UHGV virus genome: UHGV-0121619
Origin: a virus
Direction: 5' to 3' (one strand)
Length of the DNA: 10,766 bases
Shown here: one piece after another, positions 3,770 to 6,742 of the stretch
How positions within the stretch are numbered: position 1 is the first letter of the stretch
How the letters are laid out: every line of letters starts with the position of its first letter
The notes under the pieces: generated by a model
Told to the model about the DNA's origin: nothing
Database searches by the model: none
Seen by the model: the letters and a program-made list of their open reading frames with translations, nothing else
Program-made: the position numbers and the translations under genes

Positions 3770-4078
3770 TCATCTCGCCGTCAGTTGTTTTGATTTCCGG
3801 TAGCCTGCCGCGTAAATGGCTACGTTTGGCAGGCAAATACTTCCACTGCATTCATCTGCCTTCTTGCAGCGAAGGCTTCCGAGTGATATTGCTTTTTCAG
3901 AAAGGCTTAAACGCTTTCTTGGGGCTTCCTGAACAGGTTCCTCACTGTCTGTGCCGAAGATAGAATCAATGATGTTGCAGATGGCATCACGCTCGATAGC
4001 CAGCTTTCTGCGCCGCTCATGACGGCGAGTTTTGGCATTTCCTGCAAATGTTGATTTCCCGTACACGATTACCGTCAT
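3770..4078 (-). CDS. N: antitermination protein N, P22 gene 24 type
   Basis: 102 aa from ATG 4076-4078 (MTVIVYGKSTFAGNAKTRRHERRRKLAIERD...), Arg-rich motif near N-terminus as in P22 gp24; AGGA RBS upstream; ORF track start at 4162 is an upstream in-frame Met. Confidence 0.85.
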   Translation of the reverse strand: MTVIVYGKSTFAGNAKTRRHERRRKLAIERDAICNIIDSIFGTDSEEPVQEAPRKRLSLSEKAISLGSLRCKKADECSGSICLPNVAIYAAGYRKSKQLTAR

Positions 4079-4197
4079 GATGTTTTCCTCATGTGAAATG
4101 GCTTTGGTGGTGATGCGCCAGATGCTGATCTTCTGGTTGCTGTCGTTGCAGCTGCAATTCACATCACCGCCAAACCCATCTCGTTTGGTATCTGTTT

Positions 4198-4232
4198 GCG
4201 CTTTGTCAGCGCCCCATCGAAGTTAAAGAGCC
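4198..4232 (-). promoter_or_regulatory. nutL (boxA + boxB), P22-type
   Basis: Minus strand reads GCTCTTTAA (boxA-like, 4223-4232) - 9 nt - GCGCTGACAAAGCGC (boxB hairpin, 4198-4212), between pL and N. Confidence 0.7.
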
Positions 4233-4269
4233 TGCCAATCTGTTCCGTTTGGCTACCAGCGTCCTGCTG

Positions 4270-4340
4270 ATGTGTTTAGTATCACCGCTAGTGGTATGCG
4301 TGTCAACACCGCCAGAGATAATTTATCACCGCAGATGGTT
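4270..4340 (-). promoter_or_regulatory. OL1-OL2-OL3 operators with pL promoter (lambda-type)
   Basis: TATCACCGCTAGTGGTA (4280-4296), CAACACCGCCAGAGATA (4304-4320), TATCACCGCAGATGGTT (4324-4340); on minus strand -35 TTGACA (4301-4306) and -10 GATACT (4278-4283), 17-bp spacer. Confidence 0.85.
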
Positions 4341-4482
4341 ATATGTATGTTTTTTATATAGATTTATTTTTTGCCGGGGTGTGTTGCTGTGGTGGTGTGA
4401 TCGAGAGATCAGAATTGCGATGTTTAGTGAGTTGTATCTATTTATTTTTCAATAAATACAATTGGTTAATGTGTTTTTAGGT

Positions 4483-4494
4483 GGGGGGGGGGGG
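4483..4494. repeat. homopolymeric G12 tract
   Basis: Twelve consecutive G at 4483-4494, directly visible; non-coding spacer between OL3 and the bidirectional terminator. Confidence 0.9.
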
Positions 4495-4512
4495 ATCGAG
4501 AGGCAAAGAAAA

Positions 4513-4540
4513 CCCGGCGCTGAGGCCGGGTGGGGTTTTG
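4513..4540. terminator. bidirectional intrinsic terminator ending the cI operon (tIMM-like)
   Basis: Stem CCCGGC (4513-4518) / loop GCTGAG / GCCGGG (4525-4530); plus strand followed by TGGGGTTTTGTT, minus strand followed by GTTTTCTTTGCC; begins 11 nt after the stop of the 56-aa gene. Confidence 0.65.
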
Positions 4541-4711
4541 TTATTGGTGCATTTGGCAGAGTGTAGTATCAGGTCCATAAGCCAAAGTAAAAACAGGCTT
4601 GTTGATCAATCCGTTGTTCTTTAATGATTGAATCATTTTACCTTGCTCGCTAACTTTTTGCTTGCTAAGTATTTCTGCCACTTGCTGTGTCAGTGATTTG
4701 TCTTTGCTCAT
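4541..4711 (-). CDS. hypothetical 56-aa protein, translationally coupled to upstream peptidase-like gene
   Basis: ATG 4709-4711 immediately follows peptidase stop TAA 4712-4714 (TAAATG); translation MSKDKSLTQQVAEILSKQKVSEQGKMIQSLKNNGLINKPVFTLAYGPDTTLCQMHQ; stop 4541-4543; not in ORF track (below size cutoff). Confidence 0.5.
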   Translation of the reverse strand: MSKDKSLTQQVAEILSKQKVSEQGKMIQSLKNNGLINKPVFTLAYGPDTTLCQMHQ

Positions 4712-5614
4712 TTATGACTCACTTTGTTCTGAGAATGGGAATGAAGACAGAACAAGAACCTGTCGATTTGTCTTATACATGTATTCATTAATGACGTTGT
4801 GCAGATTTTTTAACGCCATGCTAAAATCTTTGTCGTATGTAAAGTCTTCTACTTTAATTCTTAAGTCATTGATAAGAGTATTTATTCCTATCGTTCTTCC
4901 GTGAGAATGCCACTTTCCGTTGTCACTAAGAGCGGTAGCGATCATTTTAGCTCTCGCTTCTTTTTCCCTCTTGGAAACTAGCTTTCCTCGTTTTGTGTTA
5001 CCTTGATGAACCGTCCACTCTCTGAATTTATACTCTACAAGCCACTTCTTAAGCAAGTCTATTGATAGCTCTCTGGCTTGCTCGTATCTCCTTAAGTGCG
5101 CAAGATCTAACTGACTAAGCATCATTAGTTCAGCTTGGGTAATGGTTCCTTCTCTGGATTTAGTAATCATTTCTTCAACTTTATCAAGGTATCCCAAAGC
5201 AGGAACCCATTTACCGTCAGAGGATTGCACTTGAGGGTCAATGGGGCCTAATGAAGAAGCATAGTTCATGTAAATTTTATCTCCAGACATACACCATATT
5301 GTGCCTGCCGACATGGCCATATCTGGAATGATAAAATATACCTCTTGATAGAAATGCCTTGTAATTTCTACCATTTTTTCCACAGACTCAACAGAGCCAC
5401 CATTTGTATTGAGTATAATAACTAGAAATCTATTGGTACGACTGTTAGCCATCTCCCCAATAGCCTCAAGTTTTGGTTGGTAAACTTCTTTTGACCATGG
5501 AAAGATACCACCGTAGTACGCTATGACGTCGCAGCTTGGGAAAAAGTTATTTTTAAATTGCTCTAACTGCCAAGAAATGTATGTTTCTAGTGTTGAATCA
5601 AGATTTTGGCTCAT
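4712..5614 (-). CDS. ClpP/S49-fold serine peptidase-like protein in the rexAB position (candidate exclusion/defence gene)
   Basis: 300-aa ORF; block LVIILNTNGGSVESVEKMVEITRHF...YFIIPDMAMSAGTIWCMSGDKIYMNYASSLGPIDPQV resembles the GG...(A)ASGG nucleophile region of SppA/ClpP-fold peptidases (putative Ser102 in AMSAG); lies directly downstream of cI on the same strand. Confidence 0.75.
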   Translation of the reverse strand: MSQNLDSTLETYISWQLEQFKNNFFPSCDVIAYYGGIFPWSKEVYQPKLEAIGEMANSRTNRFLVIILNTNGGSVESVEKMVEITRHFYQEVYFIIPDMAMSAGTIWCMSGDKIYMNYASSLGPIDPQVQSSDGKWVPALGYLDKVEEMITKSREGTITQAELMMLSQLDLAHLRRYEQARELSIDLLKKWLVEYKFREWTVHQGNTKRGKLVSKREKEARAKMIATALSDNGKWHSHGRTIGINTLINDLRIKVEDFTYDKDFSMALKNLHNVINEYMYKTNRQVLVLSSFPFSEQSES

Positions 5615-5686
5615 GTGATACCTTGCTATATCAACAATTTACAATAACATGTTGCACTATCGGTTTTTTATTAATCACAATTGGAA

Positions 5687-6400
5687 TTACCCAAACGTCT
5701 CTTCAGGCCATTGGCTGGCGATAACTTTCCCCACAACGGAACAACTCTCATTGCATGGGATCATTGGGTACTGTGGGTTTAGTGGTTGTAAAAACACATG
5801 ACCGCTATCCCTGATCAGTTTCTTGAAGGTAAACTCGTCACCGCCAAGTCTGGCTATGCAGAAATCTCCTGGCTCAACAGCCTGCTCAGGGTCAACGAGA
5901 ATTAACATTCCGTCAGGAAAGCTTGGCTTGGATCCTGTTGGCGCGGTCATGGAATTACCTTCAACCTCAAGCCAGAATGCAGAATCACTGGCTTTTTTGG
6001 TTGTGCTTACCCATCTCTCCGCATCACCTTTGGTAAAGGTTCTAAGCTCAGGCGAGAACATCCCGGCCTGAACATGAGAAAAAACAGGGTACTCATACTC
6101 ACTTCTAAGTGACGGCTGCATACTAACCGCTTCATACATCTCGTAGATTTCTCTGGCGATTGAAGGGCTAAATTCTTCAACGCTAACGTTGAGAATTTTT
6201 GCAAGCAATGCGGCGTTATAAGCATTTAATGCATTGATGCCATTAAATAAAGCACCAACGCCTGACTGCCCCATCCCCATCCTGTCTGCGACAGATTCCT
6301 GGGATAAGCCAAGTTCATTTTTCTTTTTTTCATAAATAGCTTTAAGGCGACGTGCGTCCTCAAGCTGCTCTTGTGTTAATGGTTTCTTTTTTGCGCTCAT
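5687..6400 (-). CDS. cI: CI repressor, lambda type
   Basis: 237-aa [42 protein letters not shown]...QWPEETFG recalled as almost identical to lambda CI; leaderless ATG at 6398-6400 next to pRM. Confidence 0.95.
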
Positions 6401-6410
6401 ACGTTAAATC

Positions 6411-6476
6411 TATCACCGCAAGGGATAAATATCTAACACCGTGCGTGTTGACTATTTTACCTCTAGCGGTGATAAT
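6411..6476. promoter_or_regulatory. OR3-OR2-OR1 operators with divergent pRM and pR (lambda-type)
   Basis: TATCACCGCAAGGGATA (6411-6427), TAACACCGTGCGTGTTG (6434-6450), TACCTCTAGCGGTGATA (6458-6474); pR -35 TTGACT (6448-6453) and -10 GATAAT (6471-6476); pRM TAGATA/TAGATT on minus strand. Confidence 0.9.
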
Positions 6477-6500
6477 GATTGCATGTACTAAGGAGGTTGT

Positions 6501-6701
6501 ATGGAACAACGCATAACCCTGAAAGATTATGCAATGCGCTTTGGTCAAACCAAGACGGCTAAAGATCTCGGCGTATATCAAAGCGCGATCAACAAGGCCA
6601 TTCATGCAGGCCGAAATATTTTTTTAACTATAAACGCTGATGGAAGCGTTTATGCGGAAGAAATAAAGCCCTTCCCAAGCAACAAAAAAACAACTGCATA
6701 A
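6501..6701 (+). CDS. cro: Cro repressor, lambda type
   Basis: 66-aa [41 protein letters not shown]... recalled as near-identical to lambda Cro; GGAGG RBS upstream. Confidence 0.95.
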
Positions 6702-6707
6702 GTAACA

Positions 6708-6742
6708 CCGCTCTTTATCAATCTGCACCGCCGACAACGCGG
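6708..6742 (+). promoter_or_regulatory. nutR (boxA + boxB), P22-type
   Basis: CGCTCTTTA (6708-6716) - 9 nt - ACCGCCGACAACGCGGT (6726-6742, 5-bp stem hairpin) immediately downstream of cro. Confidence 0.7.

Follow-up and report, generated by a model that had tools for sequence, protein, structure and literature searches.

Open reading frame (ORF) and protein family searches indicate that the window analysed here, the entire 10,766-nucleotide stretch of the virus genome UHGV-0121619, belongs to a lambdoid prophage from the Escherichia coli gene pool and holds its early regulatory region. In this region, the immunity core of phage lambda, comprising cI, cro and the operators OL1-3 and OR1-3, lies between an N antiterminator gene with its left nut site (nutL) and a right nut site (nutR), and N and both nut sites are of the P22 type. 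This arrangement very probably arose by a swap of the immunity cassette among phages of one N/nut specificity, via two crossovers, a scenario that is preferred because separate replacement of N/nutL and of nutR would need four crossovers. A previous sequence-only reading of the region had recognized the mosaic but ascribed it to modular exchange of antitermination specificity; the mosaic is real but the direction of the exchange is probably the reverse, such that the immunity cassette moved rather than the antitermination specificity.

Comparison with lambda by blastn confines the identity to positions 4259-4531 (86.8%), which cover the pL start, OL1-3 and the region of the tImm terminator, and 5691-6715 (97.4%), which cover cI, OR and cro, apart from small patches outside the finding. 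The gene order, the tImm-type terminator and the pL and pR hexamers (consensus scan) are those of the lambda immunity region, and all six operators are found at lambda spacing, four of them identical to their lambda counterparts and two, OL1 and OR1, with one substitution each. The CI repressor is identical to that of lambda in 233 of the 237 residues (the differences are T3A, K40R, K71N and Q201H, numbered from Met1) and Cro in 64 of 66 (K39N, V55I); in Pfam, the cro product matches the Cro family (1.3e-34), whereas HTH_3 and Peptidase_S24 match CI. The features by which imm-lambda is recognized, namely near-identical CI and Cro, including the DNA-binding domains, and six lambda-type operators overlapping pL, pR and pRM, are all present, in full agreement with what had been claimed from the sequence alone, and given the lambda-type cI and operators, a lysogen would be expected to be immune to lambda. 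The window differs from lambda in having a putative serine protease of the SDH family and a 56-amino-acid (aa) ORF in place of rexAB, non-lambda N, nutL and nutR, and a run of 12 G where lambda has 5.

The N protein, counted from the ATG at 4078, consists of 102 aa and is 69% identical to P22 gp24, with residues 1-42 nearly identical and an arginine-rich motif (ARM), GNAKTRRHERRRKLAIERD, that is identical to that of gp24; it matches the Pfam family N_peptide (PF25694) over the full length (9.8e-42). The GTG-initiated ORF 3770-4162 was ruled out as the N gene, given that P22 gp24 and the N proteins of phage 1H12 and of the prophage of E. coli EC416 start at an ATG equivalent to 4078. The protein is itself a composite, with a P22 gp24-type ARM and N-terminal part, a phi21-like middle (SLGSLRCKKA) and an HK97/P22-type C-terminus in which 20 of 22 residues are identical to HK97 N; the N of phage 1H12 is identical in 98 of 102 positions. 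The only alignment with lambda N is weak, spanning 52 residues from the ARM onward with 27% identity (E 0.007), the lambda ARM (MDAQTRRRERRAEKQ) is not found in the window N, and the lambda boxB, GCCCTGAA(A/G)AAGGGC, does not occur anywhere in the window. Searches of PDB sequences with N and with the ARM peptide yielded nothing relevant.

Both nut sites match the annotated nut features of P22 (NC_002371), with identical boxB elements, the same boxA-spacer-boxB layout and two spacer changes per site (P22 nutL GCTCTTTAACTTCGATGATGCGCTGACAAAGCGC versus GCTCTTTAACTTCGATGGGGCGCTGACAAAGCGC in the window; P22 nutR GCTCTTTACCAATCTGAACCGCCGACAACGCGGT versus GCTCTTTATCAATCTGCACCGCCGACAACGCGGT), and both boxB sites are predicted to fold as hairpins. 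A pattern search for boxA, a variable gap and GACAA found exactly two instances in the window, both in the correct orientation, against an expectation of 0.00 from 200 shuffles. The assignment of N to the gp24 type and of both boxB elements to the P22 type, which had been proposed from the sequence alone, is thereby upheld, alignment to lambda and P22 having shown neither N nor the nut sites to be lambda-like, although the right boxB occupies 6727-6743 rather than 6726-6742. Likewise, boxA-R begins 7 nt past the cro stop (6701), exactly as had been stated for nutR, whereas the distance of about 60 bp given for nutL resolves into 67 bp from the end of boxB-L to OL1 and 48 bp from the end of boxA-L. 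By virtue of this identity to the P22 elements, N would bind these boxB RNAs and suppress terminators together with the Nus factors; the structure of the complex of the P22 N peptide with the GACAA boxB has been solved (PDB 1A4T; PMC12550061). An Rfam scan of the whole window (E<=1) produced only two sub-threshold chance matches (isrC and KCNQ1OT1), none of them at the nut sites, an outcome that carries no information on these sites.

The identity to P22 covers 3044-4272 (80%; the region upstream of sieB, sieB, gene 24 and nutL) and 6696-6745 (88%; nutR) in blastn comparisons, with sieB convergent to N in both genomes; the middle and C-terminal parts of N diverge from those of P22, and the P22 immunity region (c2/cro and operators) is unrelated to that of the window. 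On the left side, three-way alignments locate the switch from P22-like to lambda-like sequence inside GCGTCCTGCTGATG (4259-4272), where the blastn blocks overlap. This segment lies 6 nt downstream of the pL -10 hexamer and is therefore where the pL transcript starts; the lambda-type side comprises the promoter and operators, and the P22-type side the transcribed leader with nutL and N. On the right side, the lambda match stops at 6715 and the P22 match begins at 6696. The sequence CATCAGCAGGACGC is present in lambda, P22, imm21, HK97, PhiR5_2, EC416 and 1H12, with one mismatch in the UMNK88 prophage, and both joint sequences are kept across these eight despite unrelated immunity. The junctions (4259-4272 and about 6694-6717) are therefore as tight as had been surmised and coincide with conserved functional sequences, which can serve as homology patches.

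The same two joints delimit the matches of relatives that differ in immunity. Escherichia phage 1H12 (Jouyvirus) matches the window at 3067-4272 (sieB-N-nutL, 97.3%) and 6696-7100 (nutR-cII, 94.6%), with nothing in between, and has a wholly different repressor/cro/operator cassette and cargo in the interval. The contig L013 matches at 1-1805, 3770-4274 (97.0%) and 6694-8762 (98.0%), with 97-98% identity over all three blocks; between the latter two, it has nothing but the tImm hairpin in common with the window, and it encodes a different repressor, Cro and cargo between the joints; the contig L018 is similar in both respects. The left-joint matches of 1H12, L013 and L018 stop at 4272-4274, and the right-joint matches of these three and of L009 begin at 6694-6696. 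The identical 102-aa N is found in 154 blocks of the assembly collection, and among the 10 of its contexts that were read, lambda-type CI/Cro adjoin it in four and two other repressor/Cro types in six, with both P22-type boxB-L and boxB-R present in all 10. Lambda-type operators, in turn, pair with lambda nut sites in lambda, with HK97-type N/nut in HK97 and PhiR5_2, and with P22-type N/nut in the window, EC416 and UMNK88. Because the same N is found beside three immunity types and lambda-type operators beside several N/nut types, the P22-type N/nut set and the lambda immunity cassette assort independently.

We infer by homology how such an arrangement would function, the functional statements resting on sequence identity to studied elements. 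Two modules can be delineated: a putative lambda-specificity immunity cassette (~4273-6693) containing pL/OL1-3, tImm, a cargo gene pair, cI, pRM/OR1-3/pR and cro, and a putative P22-specificity N set that is split around this cassette, its left part consisting of sieB, N and nutL, and its right part of nutR and cII, followed by a replication region that resembles those of P22 and HK97. In a lysogen, CI bound to the lambda-type operators would shut off pL and pR, and would drive transcription of its own gene and of the cargo from pRM up to tImm. Upon induction, the pL RNA would carry first nutL and then N, the P22-type ARM of N would bind the GACAA-pentaloop boxB hairpins in the nutL and nutR RNAs, and N, together with boxA and the host Nus factors, would enable RNA polymerase to read through downstream terminators, of which the tL1-like hairpin (2910-2925) is an example. 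N would act in trans on two sites astride the cassette, and therefore, a viable recombinant would have to keep N, nutL and nutR matched; crossovers at the 14-nt pL start and at the cro-stop/boxA segment would exchange the cassette while leaving this match intact.

Direct precedents for this arrangement are HK97 and the wild lambda-immunity phages mEp234, HK106, CL707, HK244, HK542, HK544 and mEp332. These wild phages, reportedly the subject of Degnan et al. in 2007, combine lambda-type cI, cro and operators with non-lambda flanks, variable cargo between cI and pL, and N proteins of other types (immunity regions in GenBank EF120455-EF120461). HK97 couples lambda-type cI, cro and operators to an N of its own, and the similarity of HK97 to the lambda-type block of the window begins at the same left joint, 4259, but only the last 22 residues of its N are shared with the window N, and its nutR boxB is TCGCTGACAAAGCGA. 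None of the records of HK97 and these wild phages has a megablast match to the N/nutL segment of the window. A passage of one study describes the cI-N interval as a hotspot of mosaic diversity (PMC8585504). In P22-like phages, the specificities of gp24 and of the repressor have been tabulated as assorting independently (PMC2629481), and the gp24 proteins of phage L and P22, which have their N-terminal 75 aa in common but unrelated C-termini, are interchangeable; the two phages also have the same boxB sites but differ in immunity (bioRxiv 10.1101/2020.10.05.325894). Phage L, P22, ST64T and ST104 keep the same gp24/nut specificity around non-homologous immunity regions, which is the principle seen in the window; these, however, are Salmonella phages with L-, P22- or ST104-type immunities, whereas the window has the lambda cassette and belongs to the E. 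coli pool.

The alternative scenario, which we consider unlikely, holds that a lambda-like ancestor had N/nutL and nutR each replaced by P22-type counterparts, so that the N-gene remnant at 2970-3068 would be the scar of the original lambda-type N. This remnant agrees with the C-terminus of lambda N in 17 of 25 aligned residues (E 5e-9), matches the N-like PHROG 271 (6.9e-11), and has 97.6% nucleotide identity to phage Bas106 across the 3' end of N and the sequence downstream of it; the Bas106 N has the lambda ARM. Furthermore, the sieB-N-nutL block (3067-4272), a single unit with 1H12, stops exactly at the pL joint, and therefore, replacement of N together with nutL by a crossover at this point would be feasible. 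Such a history would, however, involve two separate replacements, with four crossovers and an intermediate in which N and nutR were mismatched, and the sequences outside the cassette (the erf region, the N-terminal part of cII, the O-like and DnaB-like genes) are P22/HK97-like rather than lambda-like; relatives in which the cassette alone differs are already partly seen (1H12, L013, L018).

The remnant itself, which had been taken to extend over 2970-3179 and to indicate an exchange of antitermination specificity, does not bear this out. The N-like sequence is limited to about 2970-3068 and corresponds to the C-terminal, non-ARM part of N, and the junction of the remnant with the region upstream of sieB is found in 50 of the 5,426 complete E. 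coli genomes, so that on both counts the remnant is uninformative with regard to boxB specificity. In gp24, this specificity resides in the N-terminal part of the protein (bioRxiv 10.1101/2020.10.05.325894). The same C-terminal class is joined to a P22-type ARM in EC416, where N is P22-type over approximately the first 60 residues and identical to phi21 N in 46 of the last 48, and likewise in phage L, as suggested by what is described of its gp24 and by its match to 2964-3011 of the window, annotated there as 'antitermination protein N' and 'terminator'. The remnant/sieB junction is not only widespread but predates the present combination: in strain SW070919, PGAP calls the remnant a partial 'regulator' pseudogene, adjoining an HK97-type N, in PS_131_S11 the junction lies between ral and sieB and has a phi21-type ending, and lambda and P22 keep just a ~12-nt vestige. 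The remnant thus appears to be an old, widespread scar of a cassette consisting of sieB and an N 3' end.

Two additional observations pertain to these N-family genes. The EC416 N (L005 6059-6394), labelled a hypothetical protein by PGAP, is a natural chimera of a P22-type ARM and a phi21-type C-terminus, and the N proteins of this pool possess at least two interchangeable C-terminal modules; an EC416-type N was nevertheless ruled out as the direct source of the remnant because the 3' ends belong to different subtypes (89% identical over 55 nt). In the lambda-immunity prophage of SW070919 (L030 7981-8907), the remnant is 100% identical over 2967-3124 of the window, and two genes of the N family adjoin it, one for an 'antitermination N domain protein' and the other for the HK97-type N.

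Several points weigh against the swap of the immunity cassette. The closest relative of the remnant, Bas106, is compatible with an ancestor that had a lambda-type N, and the boxA of nutL is GGCTCTTTA rather than CGCTCTTTA, a variant that is also present in 1H12, imm21, EC416 and UMNK88. The boxB requirements of P22 N reportedly overlap those of lambda N, to judge from the title of a 2008 article by Cocozaki et al., and if so, strict matching of N and boxB may be less essential than assumed. Immunity to lambda, antitermination by N and prophage inducibility are deduced from the sequence, and present-day sequences cannot prove in which direction the exchange went.

Lambda-type cI-OR-cro is present in 617 of the 5,426 complete E. 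coli genomes (>=80% coverage), the junction of P22-type nutL with lambda-type OL in 22, and that of lambda-type cro with P22-type nutR in 16, largely in the same strains, so that ~3% of the 617 lambda-immunity genomes combine this immunity with P22-type N/nut. The EC416 prophage, which adjoins dsdC/torI, matches the window at 99.8-100% identity from 3851 to 9788. It is highly improbable that the window is an assembly chimera or a decaying, non-functional prophage in which N/nut and immunity need not work together: none of the complete E. coli genomes and phage records covers more than 63% of the window, none of the 50,697 phage records has this N/nutL together with lambda immunity at megablast sensitivity, and the window contains the N remnant, which is a pseudogene fragment. 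However, both junctions recur in 16-22 independent complete genomes at 95.7-100% identity, the match to EC416 is as close as just stated, and pL and pR keep the lambda hexamers; furthermore, the ORFs of N, cI, cro, cII, the O-like gene and the helicase are all intact and match their families over the full length.

Some details of the lambda-type core deserve separate mention. OL1 (4280-4296) and OR1 (6458-6474) differ from lambda by the same substitution, which falls at equivalent positions in their non-consensus half-sites (TACCNCTGG to TACCNCTAG). HK97, PhiR5_2, EC416 and UMNK88 have the OR1 variant as well, and EC416 and UMNK88 alone have that of OL1; laboratory lambda may itself be the exception. 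The T3A replacement falls in the N-terminal arm of CI. The G12 homopolymer (4483-4494) is located in non-coding sequence between OL3 and the tImm terminator; the run consists of 5 G in lambda, 7 in EC416 (otherwise 99.8% identical), 6 in L012 and 3-5 in others, and its length reflects either slipped-strand variation or a sequencing artefact. When 4486-4535 of the window was compared with L009-L018, the tImm hairpin and its flank (GATCGNGAGGCAAAGAAAACCCGGCGCTGAGGCCGGG) turned out to be conserved even in L011, L013, L015 and L018, which have non-lambda repressors, suggesting that the hairpin is a third conserved joint that delimits the cargo slot.

The cargo between cI and tImm lacks rexA and rexB, with no blastn match to lambda in 4532-5690. 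The protease exceeds the cut-off of Pfam PF01972 (41 bits against 31.3) but falls well short of that of the NCBIfam equivalog (54.5 against 250), and its translation contains an MSAGT motif, which we take to resemble the nucleophile motif of ClpP-type proteases. The protease and the 56-aa ORF belong to PHROGs 11747 and 28875, both of unassigned function, neither has a match in PADLOC, and a PDB sequence search with the protease gave nothing useful; RefSeq gives the same protease name in EC416. EC416, L012 and L016 possess this pair as well, whereas in the UMNK88 prophage the slot is occupied by another SDH protease, with only 24% identity. Both genes are co-oriented with cI and end at tImm, and we tentatively suggest, although with considerable doubt, that the pair could be a lysogen-expressed exclusion or abortive-infection system that replaces rexAB.

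The rest of the window has the organization expected of a lambdoid early region (Table 1). HK97 matches 1-1805 and 2385-2545 at 97% but lacks the ~1806-2384 stretch that contains the HNH-like ORF, which has the appearance of a mobile endonuclease gene that inserted here. The 3' end of cII with the oop-type terminator (7042-7100) is lambda-like (93%), unlike the rest of cII, and is a further small conserved patch at a module boundary. Within the O-like gene, 7817-7971 contain about nine copies of a 12-nt unit, CCGCACATGANN, which encode a repeated peptide and are probably the origin iterons; the blast layout suggests that their copy number differs in EC416.

Table 1. Features of the analysed window (positions in nucleotides from the first letter of the window)
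Feature	Position	Strand	Remarks
erf/abc2-type recombination genes	1-2350		common to HK97 at 97%
HNH-like ORF, 175 aa	1823-2350	-	weak PADLOC HEase (homing-endonuclease) match, 4.8e-5
108-aa ORF	2550-2876	-	
Intrinsic terminator-like hairpin, tL1-like	2910-2925	-	terminator scan; just 3' of the N remnant
N-gene remnant, 3' end of lambda/phi21-class N	2970-3068	-	ends in ...NLYYRKPRSEMGVTCSGRQKQRGKSIPAYYD and stop; lacks the ARM-coding part
sieB (superinfection exclusion B)	3172-3753	+	Pfam PF14163, 1.4e-25; convergent with N
N antiterminator	3770-4078	-	P22 gp24-type ARM and N-terminal part
nutL	4198-4231	-	boxA 4223-4231 (GCTCTTTAA); boxB 4198-4212 (GCGCTGACAAAGCGC, GACAA pentaloop)
Left joint, GCGTCCTGCTGATG	4259-4272	-	first 14 nt of the pL transcript
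pL (TTGACA-17-GATACT) with OL1-3, lambda-type	4278-4340	-	consensus scan
OL1; OL2; OL3	4280-4296; 4304-4320; 4324-4340		
tImm-like terminator	4512-4531	-	end of the cI-cargo transcript; kept across immunity types
56-aa ORF	4541-4711	-	cargo, rexAB position
300-aa putative SDH-family Clp-fold serine protease	4712-5614	-	cargo, rexAB position
cI repressor, lambda-type	5687-6400	-	
OR3; OR2; OR1	6411-6427; 6434-6450; 6458-6474	+	span 6411-6476
pR (TTGACT-17-GATAAT)	6448-6476	+	consensus scan
cro, lambda-type	6501-6701	+	
Right joint	about 6694-6717	+	last cro codons, stop, boxA (GCATAAGTAACACCGCTCTTTA)
nutR	6709-6743	+	boxA 6709-6717 (CGCTCTTTA); boxB 6727-6743 (ACCGCCGACAACGCGGT)
cII-family activator	6808-7104	+	non-lambda N-terminal part, lambda-like 3' end
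oop-type terminator	7053-7080	-	at the cII 3' end
87-aa ORF	7136-7399	+	
O-like gene	7402-8349	+	
DnaB-like helicase	8346-9722	+	
nin-region ORFs	9723-10766		

In its principle, which is already known, the window is an ordinary case of the long-known swapping of modules among lambdoid phages. It provides a natural illustration of how an antiterminator and its two RNA targets, located astride an exchangeable immunity cassette, are kept matched: N and the nut sites would remain a matched set, given that recombination is restricted to two short conserved joints. The finding also points to an unstudied protease module in the rexAB slot of lambda-type immunity regions, which are common in E. coli. 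If this module is indeed an exclusion or abortive-infection system, swapping at the two joints would spread the protease and its 56-aa partner among phages of differing N/nut specificity.

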